A stretch of 64,000 nucleotides of DNA from Eubacteriales bacterium (GTDB lineage Bacteria; Bacillota; Clostridia; Oscillospirales; CAG-382), in assembly GCA_045537905.1 (NCBI GenBank), contig JAZSQJ010000070.1:5628-69627 (forward strand). Reading direction: 5' to 3'. Numbering within the stretch: position 1 is the stretch's first letter; each line of letters opens with the position of its first letter. Below are positions 790-32,228 of this stretch, piece after piece. Below the pieces are notes generated by a model. That model was given only the letters and a program-made list of their open reading frames with translations. It made no database searches and was not told the origin of the DNA. The position numbers were made by a program, and so were the translations under genes.

Positions 790-1419
790 TTGAAATATAC
801 ACATATAATCTGGGACTTTAACGGCACTATACTGGACGACGTTTTGCCCTGCCTGGACGTGGTTAACGCCCTGCTTGACAGGCGCGGACTTAAAACCGTT
901 AACATTGATACGTATAAAAAGGTGTTTGGCTTCCCTATCAAGGACTATTACAGGGCTGTTGGCTTTGATTTCAGCGTGGAAAGCTATGAGGAGCTGGCTG
1001 ACGAATGGGCAGAGCTATACCGAAATGCTGCCGAAAGCTGCACCCTTTGCGAAGGAGTTGAGAGTGCCCTCGCCCACTTTGCCTCCCTTGGTCTGAAGCA
1101 GATAATACTTTCCGCTACAGAAAAGAATTTGTTAAGGGCACAGCTTGCCCCTTTAGGAATTGAAAGCTATTTTGAGGAGACCCTTGCACTGGATAACCTC
1201 CTTGCCGTAAGCAAGGTGGAGCTGGGCAAGGAATGGATAAAAAGAGAGCGTCCCCAAAAGGCACTGTTTATCGGTGACACCGTACACGACTTTGAAACTG
1301 CAAAAGCAATGGGAGTGGACTGCGTGCTTATCGCCAAAGGACACCAGTGCAAGAAGCGTTTATCCGCTATGGGAGTACCCGTTTTGGATAGTGTTTTGGA
1401 TTTGATAAAGCTGATATAA
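790..1419 (+). CDS. HAD-superfamily hydrolase (phosphoglycolate-phosphatase-like subfamily IA)
   Basis: ORF track 775..1419. The likely start is TTG 790, 7 nt after GGAGG (778-782). Motif I WDFNGTILDD (Asn at the Asp+2 position instead of the usual DxDGT), motif II ILSATEKN, motif IV FIGDTVHD. Confidence 0.8.
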   Translation: MKYTHIIWDFNGTILDDVLPCLDVVNALLDRRGLKTVNIDTYKKVFGFPIKDYYRAVGFDFSVESYEELADEWAELYRNAAESCTLCEGVESALAHFASLGLKQIILSATEKNLLRAQLAPLGIESYFEETLALDNLLAVSKVELGKEWIKRERPQKALFIGDTVHDFETAKAMGVDCVLIAKGHQCKKRLSAMGVPVLDSVLDLIKLI

Positions 1420-1482
1420 AGGTATTATCAAAAGCTTTGAAGATATTATCGTTAAAACCGCAGATAGAATTTAACCGCTGGG

Positions 1483-1514
1483 TTAAGGACCGTCGAGGAC
1501 GCCAGTCCCTACAA
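1483..1514. repeat. 32-bp hairpin motif ttaaggaccgtcgaggacgccagtccctacaa (intact paralogue of the IS481 target site at 43.4/44.7 kb)
   Basis: Nearly identical to the sequence rebuilt from the two flanks of the IS (ttaggaccgtcgaggac + gccggtccctacaa). GGAC(CG)...(CG/CA)GTCC arms can form a short stem. Both copies lie ~65 nt downstream of plus-strand genes. Confidence 0.7.
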
Positions 1515-1585
1515 ATAACTCCTTTAGTATTTTCGTTTTTTGTTGACTGTTTATATATTTGATATTAATATTTAATATGATATTA

Positions 1586-1873
1586 AAAAGTTTAGCGTGG
1601 TACTAACAGTGCCATGCTAAACTACTTCTTAATTCAATATGTTATTTTCTTGCGGTCTACGCCATTTTTACATCGCAGGGATAGGAAAAATTGTTCCGAA
1701 TGGGCGAACAGAACCCGAAGCTGTACTCAGTACTGCGAGTGGTTCTGTTCGTCCATAGCAAAAATTATATAATACAAATAAAGCTAAAGGTGGTACTTCT
1801 GTGCCACCTTTAACTACTTCTTAACTAATTAATTTCAATTTTTGCGCTCGGGACTATTTTTACATCTCTGCTA
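1586..1873. repeat. Composite intergenic repeat: two diverged ~95-bp direct-repeat units, each with a hairpin, bracketing a 95-bp core
   Basis: Units 1586-1680 and 1776-1873 align by eye at roughly 70% identity. Their hairpins are at 1591-1621 and 1785-1812, both followed by ctacttcttaa and ending in atttttacatc. The core 1681-1775 has a perfect 11-bp stem cgaacagaacc/ggttctgttcg (1705-1715 / 1741-1751) around ctgtactcagtactgcgag. The same module is found in the 222-bp elements at 13.4 and 31.4 kb. Confidence 0.6.
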
Positions 1874-2854
1874 GTAGTTAAAGCCCTTAAGCTCGGTAGG
1901 ATTAGCCCACCTGCCGCTTTGCTTCTTTTCTGCATAGTCGCGAAGCTGTTCCGTCCATGCATTGAAGGCATACTGATTAAGGTGGCAGGCAACTGCCGCA
2001 CCTACGTCACTGCAGAACTCGGTACCCAGACAGCCGCCGTCATCTATAAGTGCATAGGCTACGTCGATAAAATCTATGCCGTTTTGGTTGCAGTAATCAA
2101 GAACCCTTGTGTTGAAGGTGTGGATACTGCCGTTATTGAGCTTATGGGTCATATTGTTGCTGGAGCTATGAAGATAGGTGTTGCCCATTACCGCAACGGT
2201 AAGGGTGGGATAGGTGCTTTTAAGCTCGTTTACAAGGGATACGAACAAATTATAGGTCTCGTTAACGCCTGTCATCCCGTCCTTATACATAGCTATATCG
2301 TTAAGTGCCATAAGGGAGAGATAAACCGTTTTTACACCCATTTTGCCTACAGCGTCGGTTATGTTAAGCTTTTCGCCACGGAATACGGGCCACGCACAGT
2401 CTGCCTGAGAGGCGTTTTGGTTTTTGTTGTTATAGAAGCTGAAGCTTGCCGCCGCAAAGAAGGAGGCGTCACCCAGCAGACCGCTGTTTGTAGCACGGTT
2501 GGTGCTTACATAGTTTTTGTAATGAAGCATTATAGAGTTGCCCACGAATACAGAGCCGTTGAAGTAGCTGTCGTTTACGTCTGCCTCAAGCTCGTAGTTG
2601 GTGTAGTAGGCTACCCTTTCGCTATAGCTTTCGGGATAGATGGGGGTGTAAACAGGGGGAGCTACCGACTCTGCAGAGGACTCCTCTACACTGGGGATAT
2701 ATTGACTTTCCTCGCTGAAAGCAGAACCGTTTTCTTCCCCCGATTGCTCCGATATCACCTCGGAGCTACCCGTTTCCAGATTAACGTCAACACAGGAAAC
2801 CAGTGCTGACAGTGTAAATATTATGCTTAAAAATAACGCTATTGTTTTCTTCAT
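1871..2854 (-). CDS. Lipoprotein, SGNH/GDSL-hydrolase-like (function uncertain)
   Basis: Signal peptide with lipobox (LSALVSC); Ser/Glu-rich linker; VFVGNSIM resembles SGNH block I with Asn for Asp. Confidence 0.5.
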   Translation of the reverse strand: MKKTIALFLSIIFTLSALVSCVDVNLETGSSEVISEQSGEENGSAFSEESQYIPSVEESSAESVAPPVYTPIYPESYSERVAYYTNYELEADVNDSYFNGSVFVGNSIMLHYKNYVSTNRATNSGLLGDASFFAAASFSFYNNKNQNASQADCAWPVFRGEKLNITDAVGKMGVKTVYLSLMALNDIAMYKDGMTGVNETYNLFVSLVNELKSTYPTLTVAVMGNTYLHSSSNNMTHKLNNGSIHTFNTRVLDYCNQNGIDFIDVAYALIDDGGCLGTEFCSDVGAAVACHLNQYAFNAWTEQLRDYAEKKQSGRWANPTELKGFNY

Positions 2855-2869
2855 TTCTTTTCCTTTCTT

Positions 2870-4078
2870 TCACTGCATATAGGATATAAATTTTATTGCT
2901 TCTTCAGTTAAAGCTTCTTTAGTATTTTCTGTACCACCGTGGACGCAGATATACAAATGCTCCAGCACCTTGCCTATGTCCTTGCCATCCTTTACACCGA
3001 TAGCCTTTATATCCCCGCCCTTAAGCATAAGCTCAGCCGGATTAATGGGCAGGATACCCTTTTCCAGCTTGTCAAGCCGTGACAGACAATCGGTACAGAA
3101 AGCCTTGCCCTCTGCAACGGACACTGCGTACATAAGCCTTGTGTTCTGTATTCCCCTTCTTCTGGCGGTAAGGGCGAGAGACAAAGCCGTATCGAAGCAG
3201 CTTTCATACATAGCCTCTGCCGCAGACAGCACCTGTAACAGGGTTTTTGTGTCCGGCTTAAGCTTTAATATCAAAGCCCTTGCACCGTCTACACTGCCTC
3301 CAAGATAAGCAAAAAAGTATGCAAGCCTGCAGTCCCCATCCAAGGACCGAAGAGCCTTAAGCAAAGGCTCTGCCTCCTCCGGGCATTCTGCCCCTGTAGC
3401 CGTACACAGAACGGGAAGAAAAGCACCTGCAAGCCTTGGACACCGTTCGGTGACAAAAAAAGCCTTAAGCTCAGCCAAAACACGTTCTGCCGCTATGTTT
3501 TTAATAAGCTCCTTTTGCTCCAGGATAGCGGTGGCGGTGTTTTCCTCAAGGGTAAAGTCAAGCCTGGCGGCAAAACGGAGAGCACGAAGGATACGCAGTG
3601 CATCCTCCTTAAAACGCTGTTCTGCCTTCCCAACGCACCTTATTACCCCTGCCTGTAAATCGGTAATACCGCCGTGGAAGTCCAGCACGCCCTCTGAGGG
3701 GCTGTAGCACAGAGCGTTTACCGTAAAGTCCCTGCGGGCGGTGTCCTCCTCTATACTCCCTACAAACTCCACTCTGTCGGGATGGCGGTTATCCGTATAC
3801 CCACCCTCCTTGCGGAAGCTTGTAAGCTCCACACTGTAGATGCCGTATATAAGGGTTACCGTACCGTGTTTTATGCCCGTGGGGATAACGGTGCAATCCG
3901 AAAACAGCTCCATAACCTTATCAGGCGTGGCAGAGCTGGCTATATCGTAATCGTGAGGGACCTTTCCCAAAAGAGCATCCCTTACACAGCCGCCTACAAA
4001 ATAGGCACGGTATCCTGCCTTCTCAAGCCTTGCCACCACTTCAAGCAGGGGCTTTGGAAAAACGAAAGCCATTTTCAT
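2870..4078 (-). CDS. cca: CCA-adding tRNA nucleotidyltransferase
   Basis: YFVGGCVRDALLGKVPHDYDIA nucleotidyltransferase motif, RRDFTVNA, ERxxxEL head/neck motifs; 402 aa. Confidence 0.9.
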   Translation of the reverse strand: MKMAFVFPKPLLEVVARLEKAGYRAYFVGGCVRDALLGKVPHDYDIASSATPDKVMELFSDCTVIPTGIKHGTVTLIYGIYSVELTSFRKEGGYTDNRHPDRVEFVGSIEEDTARRDFTVNALCYSPSEGVLDFHGGITDLQAGVIRCVGKAEQRFKEDALRILRALRFAARLDFTLEENTATAILEQKELIKNIAAERVLAELKAFFVTERCPRLAGAFLPVLCTATGAECPEEAEPLLKALRSLDGDCRLAYFFAYLGGSVDGARALILKLKPDTKTLLQVLSAAEAMYESCFDTALSLALTARRRGIQNTRLMYAVSVAEGKAFCTDCLSRLDKLEKGILPINPAELMLKGGDIKAIGVKDGKDIGKVLEHLYICVHGGTENTKEALTEEAIKFISYMQ

Positions 4079-4081
4079 AAA

Positions 4082-4564
4082 TCAGATGGGAAGGTCGTAA
4101 TTACCGTGGGGGGTATTGAAGTCGGAGCCGTTTACCGTAAGGCGTACAAGCTCCACACCGAAGCAGGATTTAAGGGTCTTTACGGTGCCGTACATAGAAA
4201 AATACTCCTGGGCAGAGCTACCCGTTGCCTTCTTAAGCTCACCATCAAAATCAATGTGCAGGGTATTACCTTTTATATACCAATTGTTTACACCAACCTT
4301 TACGTCGCCGTAATTCCCCAGCTCGTAAAGGGTGTCTATTATATCCTGGGCGGTACCGTCAAACTCCTTCTCAGCCGTAAGGTAGTTATTAAAATCCTCA
4401 TCGGGATAGTAAAAGGTACCCTTACCGCCGTCTCTGCTGGTAACGATATCGTCGTTAATCTCGGATTTTGTGCCCGAGCTATCGACGTTATTATCACCGC
4501 CTGCACAAGCGGTAAAAATAAGCATTACACTGATAACTAATGCTGACAGTCTTAAAAGCTTCAT
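4082..4564 (-). CDS. GerMN-domain lipoprotein
   Basis: Lipobox IFTAC. C-terminal GTVKTLKSCFGVELVRLTVNGSDF is typical of GerMN (sporulation/germination) domains. Confidence 0.55.
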   Translation of the reverse strand: MKLLRLSALVISVMLIFTACAGGDNNVDSSGTKSEINDDIVTSRDGGKGTFYYPDEDFNNYLTAEKEFDGTAQDIIDTLYELGNYGDVKVGVNNWYIKGNTLHIDFDGELKKATGSSAQEYFSMYGTVKTLKSCFGVELVRLTVNGSDFNTPHGNYDLPI

Positions 4565-4579
4565 AATAAATACCTCCGT

Positions 4580-4978
4580 TTACTTATGGGTCCAAGCCAG
4601 CTCCCAATCCAAAAGGAGACTTACTGCCTTACCCTCTACCTTTATTGCCACGCTAAGACCCTGTCTTATGCTTAGCCATTCCTCCCCGTCAGGGTCATAC
4701 TTAACCACCTTGCATTTTACAGGGTAGAGCAGATAATGCTTCTGACTCCCCTCCCTCTCCCCCGGCTCATACGCCCAAAGGTCGGGACACTTTGCGGCAA
4801 CCACACCAAGCTCCTCCAAAAAAGCAAGGCTTGACCTGTCCATGGCACTTATCTGCTCGTCAAAATTACGGCAAACGGGACACTGACATCTTTGCCTGGT
4901 GTACTGCCCCGTGCTGTATGCACCGTTGGTGGCGGCAATATCTATATCAATTACGTTGTTGCCTGTAGAAAACAGCAT
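4580..4978 (-). CDS. Hypothetical protein (CxCPxC-containing)
   Basis: 132-aa ORF at the head of the same minus-strand gene string; no motif recognised. Confidence 0.4.
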   Translation of the reverse strand: MLFSTGNNVIDIDIAATNGAYSTGQYTRQRCQCPVCRNFDEQISAMDRSSLAFLEELGVVAAKCPDLWAYEPGEREGSQKHYLLYPVKCKVVKYDPDGEEWLSIRQGLSVAIKVEGKAVSLLLDWELAWTHK

Positions 4979-5050
4979 AGCAGCCTCCCGGGTTTTTACT
5001 TAACATATTTTAACATTATTTATTCTTTTTTGCAACACTCTTTTTGCATA

Positions 5051-13412: not shown

Positions 13413-13438
13413 GAAGAGGTGGCATAAGCCACCTCTTC
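13413..13438. repeat. Left copy of the duplicated terminator hairpin flanking element copy A
   Basis: gaagaggtggcataagccacctcttc. Identical over 25 nt to 13661-13685, but not followed by a T-run. Confidence 0.8.
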
Positions 13439-13660
13439 AGACCGCTGACAAAGGCACAGAGCACGAAAAAGAATAAAACATACTCATTCTAAAGTAGAAA
13501 ATTCAGGGAAAATTTTCCTGAATTTTCTGCATTTTATTTGTTTTTTCGTTCAAAACGAACCTCGGCTCACAGTACTTAGTACAGTTTTCCCCTCGGTTCG
13601 TCTTGCCTGCACTCTTTCTCAGCACTCTGCCAGCTTGATGACAAGATTTGTCATCAAGCT
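13439..13660 (+). repeat. 222-bp ORF-less structured intergenic element, copy A (MITE-like)
   Basis: About nine-tenths identical (by eye) to the reverse complement of 31394-31614. Contains a 14-bp stem agaaaattcaggga/ttcctgaattttct (13495-13529) followed by attttatttgtttttt. Also contains a GTACTTAGTAC palindrome (13572-13582) and a terminal 13-bp hairpin agcttgatgacaa-gat-ttgtcatcaagct (13632-13660). Confidence 0.8.
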
Positions 13661-13690
13661 GAAGAGGTGGCATAAGCCACCTCTTTTTTG
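13661..13690 (+). terminator. Right copy of the duplicated hairpin, retaining the T-run (functional terminator of the upstream membrane-protein gene)
   Basis: gaagaggtggc-ataa-gccacctctt followed by ttttttg. Confidence 0.7.
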
Positions 13691-29933: not shown

Positions 29934-29968
29934 AAGGAGTTGCGAGAAATCGCAACTCCTTTTGTTTG
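29934..29968 (+). terminator. Rho-independent terminator of pnp
   Basis: aaggagttgcga-gaaa-tcgcaactcctt followed by ttgtttg. Confidence 0.75.
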
Positions 29969-30006: not shown

Positions 30007-30909
30007 TTAACTATTCCCCATCCAAATACCAAACAATACGCCTAATACAACACACACCGCTATAAACACAAAACATCCTATAAGATTATTTCTGTTTTCC
30101 TTGCGTTGAGCTTCAAGCTTCTCGTTATAACGCTGGTTAAGCTCGGCAATCTTTTCTTCAGCGTTAACAGTGGAATCAAGAGCGGCTAATCTTCTGTAAT
30201 AACCGGATATTACAGACACACGGTTTTCATTTAGTCCGCTTTCCTCTACTGCTTTTATCAAATATTTTAGTATATTGATTTTATAGTTTTTATTTTGCAG
30301 TTTTTCCTCAAGACTTGAAAGAGTGTTACGCATTTCTATTTGCAGAGAATCAAAAAGATTATAGGTTTGCTGCCTGTCATCAGTTGTGCTGGTAACGCCG
30401 TTAACTGTTTTTCTGGTGGTGTTGTAGACAAAGCTACTGCCTCTCATTGCGTTAACATCAGAGAGAATTTGAGTTACGAGCTTATACTGCTCGTCTTCCT
30501 TGCTTACATCAAAGTGATCGTCAATTATGCTTACGCTTTTATTAAGCACCTTGAATGCCGCCTGACGCTTATACAGATCCGAATCTACAAGGGTTTGCTT
30601 TGCCTTACCGAAGGCACTGTAGAAAATTGCCTCGATGTTTGTAGGGTCTTCCTGCTCTGCAAGGTTGTAGTACTTTTCAACCTCTGCCCAGTCTTCCTTT
30701 TCCTTGGCTCTTCTTGCGTTTTGCAGATACTTTTGCACCATTGCAGAATTATCAACGGTAACAGTACCCTTAACGTCAACTGTGCCCTCGATCATCATTT
30801 TCTTTGCTTCCTCAGGGCTGTACTTAGTGCCGCAGTTTTGGCACACGAACATCCCGTCTACCTTAGCAAAATCGTTGCCTGAACACATTTCGCAAACAAT
30901 AGCTTTCAT
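30007..30909 (-). CDS. Tail-anchored zinc-ribbon protein, function unknown
   Basis: N-terminal CEMCSG...CQNCGTKY zinc ribbon, helical middle part and a C-terminal TM helix (LIGCFVFIAVCVVLGVLFGIW). Confidence 0.6.
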   Translation of the reverse strand: MKAIVCEMCSGNDFAKVDGMFVCQNCGTKYSPEEAKKMMIEGTVDVKGTVTVDNSAMVQKYLQNARRAKEKEDWAEVEKYYNLAEQEDPTNIEAIFYSAFGKAKQTLVDSDLYKRQAAFKVLNKSVSIIDDHFDVSKEDEQYKLVTQILSDVNAMRGSSFVYNTTRKTVNGVTSTTDDRQQTYNLFDSLQIEMRNTLSSLEEKLQNKNYKINILKYLIKAVEESGLNENRVSVISGYYRRLAALDSTVNAEEKIAELNQRYNEKLEAQRKENRNNLIGCFVFIAVCVVLGVLFGIWMGNS

Positions 30910-31039
30910 TTTACGGTTTCCTTTCGTTTTTTCGTCCTCGCAGGAACTTTTCTTCCTACGATTATACAGTATATCTTCCTGTTTGTCAACACTAAATAGG
31001 TATTATAATTCTTATATACAAGAATTTGGAGGAAGAATA

Positions 31040-31363
31040 ATGCTTATTTATAACTTAAACGATATAGGAAACCGACTTTTGGAGGCAAGAAAAAAGCTTG
31101 GGTACACCCAAGCAGAGGTAGCAGAGCGGGCAGGGATTTCAGACAGAACCTACGCCGATATAGAAAGAGGCACGGTCAATATGCGCCTTTTGACCTTTTT
31201 ACAGATATGCACCTGTCTTAAAGTTACGCCCAATGATATTGTAACAAAAGAGGAACCGACGGTTGACGAAAAGGTGTTTATTGACGCTTTGGGCGGACTA
31301 ACCAACAAGCAAAAAAACGATGCTTTGAAAATACTGTCTGTTTTTATAGAGTCTATAAAATAA
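31040..31363 (+). CDS. XRE-family helix-turn-helix transcriptional regulator
   Basis: ATG 31040 after GGAGGAAG (the ORF track's 30704 start is an upstream extension). LLEARKKLGYTQAEVAERAGISDRTYADIERG is a classic HTH_3 motif. Confidence 0.85.
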   Translation: MLIYNLNDIGNRLLEARKKLGYTQAEVAERAGISDRTYADIERGTVNMRLLTFLQICTCLKVTPNDIVTKEEPTVDEKVFIDALGGLTNKQKNDALKILSVFIESIK

Positions 31364-31368
31364 AAATC

Positions 31369-31392
31369 AGGAGTTGCAACACTGCAACTCCT
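31369..31392. repeat. Left copy of the duplicated terminator hairpin flanking element copy B
   Basis: aggagttgcaacactgcaactcct. It matches 31616-31639 except for one loop base and is not followed by a T-run. Confidence 0.8.
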
Positions 31393-31393
31393 C

Positions 31394-31614
31394 AGCTTGA
31401 TGACAAACCTTGTCATCAAGCTGGCAGAGCGCTGAGAAAGAGTGCAGACAAGACGAACCGAGGCGATAACTGTACTAAGTACTGTGAGCCGAGGTTCATT
31501 TTGAACGTAAAAACAAATAAAATGCAGAAAATTCAGGGAAGGCATCCCTGAATTTTCTACTTTAATATAATTGTATTTTGTTTTTTTCGTGTTCTGTGCC
31601 TTTGTCAGCGGTCT
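31394..31614 (-). repeat. 221-bp ORF-less structured intergenic element, copy B (inverted relative to copy A)
   Basis: Its reverse complement aligns end to end with 13439-13660. Differences cluster in an AT-rich patch and in hairpin loops (aaatt versus tgcct; gat versus ggt) while the stems are preserved. Confidence 0.8.
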
Positions 31615-31648
31615 GAGGAGTTGCAACACCGCAACTCCTTTCTGTTTT
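31615..31648 (+). terminator. Right copy of the duplicated hairpin with T-rich tail (terminator of the XRE gene)
   Basis: gaggagttgc-aacacc-gcaactcctt followed by tctgtttt. Confidence 0.6.
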
Positions 31649-32228
31649 AATCTAATTTGCACCTTACAACGGTGTACTCGAAGCCGTAGCTGTTTCTTGC
31701 AAAAAAGCTAAGCTCCCCTTCCCCATCAGACAGCTTCTCGTAGGAAACGTCCTCAGTTATAAGAATCTCACTTACCGCATAGGTGTAGCGAGCACCCAAG
31801 GTGTCGGTAAAATATACCGTATCGCCCGTGGATATATTCTTCATAAAATCAAACTGGCCCTCGTTATCACTGCCGCCGATTATCAGACTGCTGTCGTATA
31901 TGCTGCCGTCGAATCTATGGGGATATTTGCTTACGTCCTTTGCACTCCATTTATTTGCAACGGGCAAGCACACGTTATAAGCGGGTATCTCTATAATACC
32001 TACAAAGTCTACACCGTCCAGCTCTATGGAAGGCATAACGGTGTCTCCCTTGCCGTCAGGATATCCGTTTTGGACTTCAGGCATCAGTTCTTTCATTTCC
32101 TCGGTAATAGCCGCCGCCTTGTCTTTGTTGCCGGGAATGGCAATTCTGTTAACCACAAGCAAGGCCAGAGCCGATGCAAACAAAAGAATGCCCAAGATGA
32201 GGATTATCTGCGATACTCTTTTAGTCAT
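31647..32228 (-). CDS. Sortase-fold membrane protein lacking the canonical His/Cys/Arg triad (pseudo-sortase)
   Basis: N-terminal TM anchor. The sortase-like core (IEIPAYNVCLPV..., GDTVYFTDTLGARYTYAV) aligns to SrtA/SrtC. It has IIGGSDNEGQF where sortases have (I/V)AGH..., and ELSFFARNS where they have TLxTC. Confidence 0.6.
   Translation of the reverse strand: MTKRVSQIILILGILLFASALALLVVNRIAIPGNKDKAAAITEEMKELMPEVQNGYPDGKGDTVMPSIELDGVDFVGIIEIPAYNVCLPVANKWSAKDVSKYPHRFDGSIYDSSLIIGGSDNEGQFDFMKNISTGDTVYFTDTLGARYTYAVSEILITEDVSYEKLSDGEGELSFFARNSYGFEYTVVRCKLD

Follow-up and report, generated by a model that had tools for sequence, protein, structure and literature searches.

Insertion sequences of the IS1182 family use palindromes or hairpins as targets and are flanked by direct repeats of variable length, for which ISfinder gives 0-60 bp. 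Palindromic targets are reportedly mentioned in the review of Siguier et al. from 2015. Two staphylococcal members of the family, IS1272 and TnSha1, target hairpins without sequence specificity, often terminators and in both orientations; the hairpin is deleted or replaced, and no duplication has been reported (PMC4923244, PMC5678879). According to the cruciform model of Wan et al. 2017, an attack at the 3′ feet deletes the stem-loop, while an attack at the 5′ feet ("pathway b") would duplicate it, a possibility that was drawn in that paper and is undocumented there (PMC5678879). The transposition mechanism of IS1182 was listed as unknown in a 2018 review (PMC6199540). No description of IS1182-derived MITEs was found in the open literature.

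The element studied here, copy B, is located in a window of 64,000 nt, the whole stretch of DNA that was analysed, which is contig C43 of an assembly of 1.88 Mb in 89 contigs. We read copy B, with a probability of about 0.85, as a MITE derived from an insertion sequence (IS) of the IS1182 family and mobilised in trans by a DDE transposase of the IS1182 type, with attack at the two 5′ feet of an extruded hairpin or cruciform. As described in the initial annotation, copy B sits between two copies of the hairpin terminator of an XRE gene, with the T-rich tail on the right. The coordinates of its features are given in Table 1.

Table 1 Features of the copy B locus, with the second copy of the element and the pnp terminator from the same window.
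Feature	Position	Strand	Remarks
Copy A, same element	13438..13661	-	Flanking duplicated hairpin AAGAGGTGGCATAAGCCACCTCTT at 13414-13437 and 13662-13685
Unoccupied pnp terminator hairpin, similar arms	29934..29961	+	pnp identity confirmed by domain search
XRE-family HTH regulator gene, terminator hit by the insertion	31040..31363	+	Pfam HTH_3, E=2e-12
Left hairpin AGGAGTTGCAACACTGCAACTCCT	31369-31392		24-nt target-site duplication, 1 mismatch
MITE copy B, termini CAGCTTGATGACAAACC... and ...CCTTTGTCAGCGGTCTG	31393..31615	+	223 bp, ORF-less
Terminal perfect palindrome, 31 nt, 14-bp stem	31393..31423		Back-to-back pair of end motifs; similar to the right end of the IS
Third end-like motif CAGAGCGCTGAGAAAG	31425..31440	+	Family consensus CAGAGTGCTGAGAAAG; 66 genomic occurrences
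Internal hairpin, 14-16 bp, between an A-run and a T-rich run	31524..31560		Terminator-like on both strands
Terminus CAGACCGCTGACAAAG (read inward)	31600..31615	-	Same as the left end of the IS of the IS1182 family (16/16)
Right hairpin AGGAGTTGCAACACCGCAACTCCT	31616-31639		T-tail TTCTGTTTT kept for the XRE transcript
Convergent downstream gene, weak sortase-like match	31647..32228	-	Sortase, 25.4 bits, just below the cut-off

The XRE gene product has 107 aa, and the stop codon lies 5 nt upstream of the left hairpin. The target, a perfect hairpin, is a bidirectional terminator, shared by the XRE gene and the convergent gene downstream. In its left copy, the T-tail of the + strand was lost and the T-run of the - strand was kept, leaving it terminator-like on the - strand (tail GATTTTTATT). 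The two hairpins are identical at 23 of 24 positions, and their single difference is found in the loop (T at 31383, C at 31630). An ORF of 170 aa (31150..31662, - strand), which runs antisense to the XRE gene and through copy B, was considered as a gene and dismissed as an accident, because the open frame runs through in only 2 of 43 copies of the element.

Copy A, the second copy in the window, has the opposite strand and ~91% alignment identity to the 223 bp of copy B. The hairpin duplicated around it is unrelated to that of copy B. The hairpin at the pnp terminator, for which the same 9-bp arms had been pointed out, is indeed present, but the 9-mer with its complement occurs 25 times in the genome against ~14 expected, so that the shared arms are weak evidence.

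An empty allele of the copy B site was detected in metagenomic data. Contigs (Logan) from four gut or faecal metagenome runs (X1-X4) were compared with positions 30900-32140. In run X1, a contig of 511 nt joins 31368 to 31616, and 247 nt, comprising the element and one hairpin, are missing. The contig showed no mismatches over 146 nt on the left and two mismatches over 365 nt on the right. This unoccupied allele holds a single hairpin, with the loop as in the right-hand copy (31616-31639). The two hairpins around copy B are therefore a target-site duplication, a better term than the "captured hairpin" used at first, and the insertion is polymorphic in nature. The proposal that a mobile element had duplicated a whole palindromic terminator is thus borne out by the single hairpin of the X1 allele. 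Among the 12 other genomes of the genus, the empty site of copy B was not found. One of these genomes, that of a near-identical strain (G012; L095, contig C22, positions 1-220 against 31616-31700), has a right flank that is 99% identical from the first base after the hairpin. Upstream, it carries a different hairpin and unrelated DNA, and the break in synteny falls exactly at the hairpin.

The element is abundant in its own genome. In a BLAST search of the 1.88-Mb assembly, the 223-bp core found 46 full-length copies and ~35 that are truncated at contig ends, and the copy number of the MITE in the genome was estimated at ~65-75. The same whole hairpin was present on both sides in 34 of the 42 fully flanked copies. 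These duplicated hairpins measure 17-37 bp, and their sequence is different at each site. When ends were paired across contigs, ~61 of 64 genuine left ends had a right-end partner with the same hairpin. Unlike flanking hairpins were seen at the other 8 of the 42 in-contig copies, and for every such odd hairpin the matching partner was located beside a contig-truncated copy. On this basis, we tentatively attribute the unlike flanks to wrong joins made through the repeat, or to copies having recombined with each other. Composite transposons were considered for these eight copies and set aside, because the partners at contig-cut copies make mis-assembly or recombination the simpler explanation. 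The MITE is recently mobile. Thirteen copies in this genome are 98-99% identical to the consensus, a degree of sequence identity that suggests a recent burst.

The boundaries of the duplications are always mirror images about the centre of the palindrome. The cut offsets were (0,0) at nine sites, (-1,+1) at six and (+1,-1) at four, with 19 of 27 lying within +/-1 nt of the stem foot. Where the palindrome continues into A/T pairs, the cuts are 3-5 bp inside, on both sides. The junctions are constant, as the initial annotation had stated, but their position was off by one base: the C and the G belong to the element, and its invariant termini are CAG...CTG.

Insertion is orientation-independent, as previously proposed. 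Relative to the T-tract, the 34 copies were split 5 vs 7, and the other 22 were uninformative (A and T runs flanked 11 of these on both sides, and the remaining 11 had no such runs). The first duplicated base was A in 33 of 42 copies, compared with 45% among the 589 perfect palindromes of the genome, ~8% of which are occupied by the MITE. A preference for hairpins beginning with GA(A/G)GAG, which the initial annotation had put forward for testing, was not supported: few of the 34 duplicated hairpins start with (A/G)GAG (judged by eye, uncounted), and only the bias for A at the first base holds. Two families of REP-like palindromes were also noticed in the genome, with ~28 and ~34 copies (GGCTGTAAAAAAC...GTTTTTTACAGCC and GGGGTTGTCTCAAAT...ATTTGAGACAACCCC). 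Both are frequent landing sites of the MITE, for example in the flanks at C24:14165, C64:25636, C41:66 and C18:9554.

The MITE has a length of 223-226 bp. A variant of 257-261 bp carries a palindromic insert of 36 nt (ATACCACCCCACAAAAATATATTTTTGTGGGGACCCCGG) that replaces CTA at approximately position 85 (C62:56-140, C80:40110-40369 and 12 more copies). The family consensus of the third end-like motif matches the right terminus at 12/16 positions, as an imperfect inverted repeat, and the motif itself shows long-range pairing with alignment columns 243-262. The loop of the internal hairpin is a landing site in its own right, with two other insertion sequences found there in at least four copies (C3:38555-38806, C85:1-198, C33:1-139 and C34:28219-28357). 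They have the ends TGAAC/TGAAG...GTAGACAC, and one of them has an rve-like C-terminus (...YYFNYIKPLRKLKRKPPGQF). Their other sites (C18, C21) share CCTG-N3-ATTTT, and they look site-specific.

Folded as single-stranded DNA, positions 31360-31650 reached -79.8 kcal/mol, compared with -31.4 +/- 3.7 kcal/mol for shuffled sequences (z = -13), thus the structure is not due to chance. Across 43 copies, compensatory double changes had occurred at 6 of 14 base pairs in the stem of the terminal palindrome, and at 3 in the internal hairpin. These genome-wide changes uphold the selection on structure that had been proposed from two copies. They indicate that pairing was kept, and the constraint may be a requirement of the DNA or the transposase rather than of an RNA. 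A strong predicted fold and compensatory changes in two stems are also what a structured non-coding RNA gene with its own terminators would display; such a gene, or else a local duplication by replication slippage, would make copy B something other than mobile DNA. As the sole explanation, we consider either origin extremely improbable. The flanking hairpins differ at all of more than 40 sites, an empty allele exists, and the assembly is broken at the copies, as it would be at a dispersed repeat. A scan of 31200-31800 against Rfam at E<=1 gave no family match, only sub-threshold chance matches. Single changes in the stems were G.T (G.U) in nine cases vs A.C in five, a difference that is not significant; no strand was favoured, and the asymmetry that would indicate an RNA was not seen.

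A candidate partner IS was found in the same genome. The end of contig C75 encodes the C-terminal 235 aa of an IS1182-type transposase (PF13751, 90 bits), which is the only IS4/IS5/IS1182-type DDE match in this genome. The N-terminal half (PF05598) was not found in the genome, and the IS is cut by the contig end. The DNA of the fragment ends with ...GGGTTTGTCAGTAATCTG, followed by TG and a 34-nt hairpin, which the IS end TTTGTCAGTAATCTG abuts. This 34-nt hairpin at the right end of the IS (C75:20460-20504) recurs reverse-complemented at C69:35979-36012, where it adjoins a MITE terminus equal to the left end of the IS. Either the IS is flanked by this duplication and C69 was joined wrongly, or MITE and IS formed a composite that moved as a unit.

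A full IS of 1,597 bp, with 96% amino acid identity to the C75 fragment, is present in a genome of the same genus (G011, JAZNUB010000049), and a second full copy in a genome of a different family. The IS protein of 492 aa (L003) was assigned to the IS1182 family by NF033551 (transpos_IS1182, 457 bits, cut-off 270), and it matched PF05598 with 83 bits and PF13751 with 87 bits. The 1,597-bp IS ends with CAGACCGCTGACAAAG and CAGATTACTGACAAAC, and has terminal inverted repeats and a size within 1.3-2 kb, as in the IS1182 family. Its left end is identical to the MITE terminus at 31600-31615 (16/16), and its right end, CAGATTACTGACAAACC when read inward, agrees at ~14/17 positions with CAGCTTGATGACAAACC, the MITE terminus on the opposite side. 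Both ends of the MITE and both ends of the IS have the core CAG-N5-TGACAAA in common. Beyond the terminal 16-17 nt, a comparison by eye revealed no similarity between MITE and IS. The MITE is not a simple internal deletion of this IS. It may have arisen by end capture, or its source may be a variant IS outside the assemblies.

The match of the ends to a DDE-type IS also bears on a different origin, namely a single-strand (HUH/Y1) element like those of IS200/IS605-PATE or REP/RAYT, or a product of site-specific recombination that merely lies beside hairpins. The copies would suit it in being hairpin-rich, in having a terminal palindrome and in always lying against palindromes. Such systems make no target duplication, whereas the empty site in run X1 proves that a whole hairpin was duplicated. 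Furthermore, a search of this genome for the HUH Y1 transposase (PF01797) gave no match. An HUH/Y1 origin is thus hardly credible.

The distribution of MITE and IS overlaps in part. Every one of the 13 congeneric genomes contains the MITE, G004 with no more than one weak, partial match, and it was absent from 48 genomes of other genera of the same family and order. The best-matching IS was present in only 2 of the 13. In the metagenomes, the whole IS was covered at ~95% identity in X1 and X2 (depth 20-27). X3 and X4 contain hardly any of this IS but a great abundance of the MITE, which therefore persists without it in some communities. The summed depth of MITE words (31393-31615) in X3 and X4 reached ~1,000-5,000, compared with a depth of 3-11 for the host locus.

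This partial co-occurrence speaks against the assignment of the partner, as does the fact that the IS of the own genome is a contig-end fragment. The same kind of MITE could have been moved by a different transposase, either that of a second IS1182-type element or that of an IS absent from the assemblies. The second element encodes a protein of 484 aa, 37-39% identical, and occurs in four congeners (G001, G003, G007 and G008). In one of them (L007, G001:C19, 698-2460) it ends directly at the terminal palindrome of a MITE copy, a palindrome that looks like the landing hairpin of the 484-aa element. The presence of the MITE throughout the genus and in X3 and X4, without the best-matching IS in most of these, would fit such a helper as well. 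However, MAG assemblies commonly drop IS copies, which makes absence weak evidence, and the ends of the 484-aa element (CAGACTGTCGAAAAAG / CAGCCTGTCGAAAAAG) fit those of the MITE at only 12/16 and 10/16 positions and are without the TGACAAA core, against 16/16 and ~14/17 for the first IS. We regard a different transposase as unlikely, and favour mobilisation in trans by the IS with the matching ends.

To see the MITE in the context of its family, 80 loci encoding relatives of the transposase were examined. In isolate genomes, whole-hairpin direct repeats were found at 21 of 22 full-length copies, each with a different hairpin. These were 9/9 copies in Clostridium carboxidivorans P7 (NZ_CP011803), 4/5 in Cohnella cholangitidis, 4/4 in Paenibacillus curdlanolyticus, 2/2 in Pristimantibacillus and 2/2 in Clostridium sp. 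FAM 1755. Whole-hairpin duplication is thus a trait of this branch of IS1182, and not of the MITE alone. Among the 15 full-length IS copies from short contigs of MAGs, a duplicated hairpin was found at 4 and unlike hairpins at the other 11 (L014, L016, L018, L024-L026, L032-L034, L036, L004), probably a result of chimeric assembly across a multi-copy IS.

We propose that an IS1182-type DDE transposase, supplied in trans, would bind the CAG-N5-TGACAAA ends of the MITE. The two 3′ ends of the element would then be joined to the target at both 5′ feet of a hairpin-forming palindrome, which probably takes the form of an extruded cruciform or of a fold in single-stranded DNA. Because the attack points mirror each other across the palindrome, the stagger would correspond to the whole hairpin, and gap repair would leave one complete hairpin on each side. 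With such a stagger, it would be the shape of the target, not its sequence, that decides where the element inserts and how many base pairs are duplicated (17-37 bp).

The insertion is probably nearly harmless, with termination retained. After insertion, each transcript would pass from a tail-less hairpin to the bidirectional terminator-like hairpin of the element and then to the tailed copy, and the convergent transcript would meet the mirror image of this series. The cost would be a 3′ extension of up to 247 nt.

The enzyme may even recognise DNA structure on both partners. In such a hairpin-hairpin synapsis, a DDE transposase with an RNase H fold would cut a four-way junction symmetrically, in a resolvase-like manner. 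The idea is based on the end of the element, a perfect hairpin of two end motifs, and on the left end of the IS, which also folds into a terminal hairpin; we put it forward tentatively, as rather doubtful. If it were true, this branch of IS1182 would be a natural integrase that is sequence-independent and guided by structure, with a stagger programmable by stem length (17-37 bp), and the MITE would act as a mobile cassette with a bidirectional terminator, keeping termination intact at any insertion site.

Copy B and its empty allele provide a clean natural case in which DNA shape, rather than sequence, determines the target of a DDE transposon and the length of the duplication that it leaves. 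At ~70 copies, the MITE is one of the main reasons why the assembly of this 1.9-Mb genome, from a gut Clostridia member, breaks into contigs, and many contigs end inside a copy. It marks synteny breaks between strains, and may lengthen the 3′ UTRs of many genes. For this genome, the analysis adds a candidate for the partner IS, an empty allele at the copy B site, the finding that the cuts are mirror-symmetric, and the result of 21 out of 22 from isolate genomes.

This is not a new kind of system, and the behaviour of the MITE is a habit of a known transposon family, IS1182. The MITE can be likened to spacer integration by CRISPR Cas1-Cas2 and to casposons, where a staggered attack at both borders of a palindromic repeat duplicates the whole repeat. 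This is an analogy only: Cas1 is an unrelated enzyme, and the repeat there has one fixed sequence and a length set by a ruler mechanism. Other systems for comparison are the REP/BIME-type repeats and other bacterial MITEs (Correia, RUP, ERIC, bcr1), which are likewise short, structured, intergenic and high-copy, and lie at gene ends. Those repeats have short fixed duplications (e.g. TA) or none, and a sequence is recognised. To our knowledge, none of them duplicates a whole hairpin of variable length.

The MITE shares with the full-length IS1182 elements of Clostridia and Paenibacillaceae the CAG-N5-TGA(C/T)AA ends and the whole-hairpin duplications of variable length, and their transposase is 50-62% identical to that of the partner. 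Unlike these elements, which are autonomous, 1.55-1.6 kb long and present in few copies per genome, the MITE is non-coding, reaches ~70 copies in a 1.9-Mb genome and bears a palindrome at its end and a terminator-like hairpin inside. With IS1272 and TnSha1, it has in common the transposase family, hairpin targets without a common primary sequence and insertion in either orientation. It differs from them in being a 223-bp MITE rather than an autonomous IS, and in duplicating the whole hairpin (5′ feet), whereas in IS1272 and TnSha1 the hairpin is reported to be deleted or replaced (3′ feet), a contrast that counts against our reading. The present MITE and its full-length relatives are examples of "pathway b".
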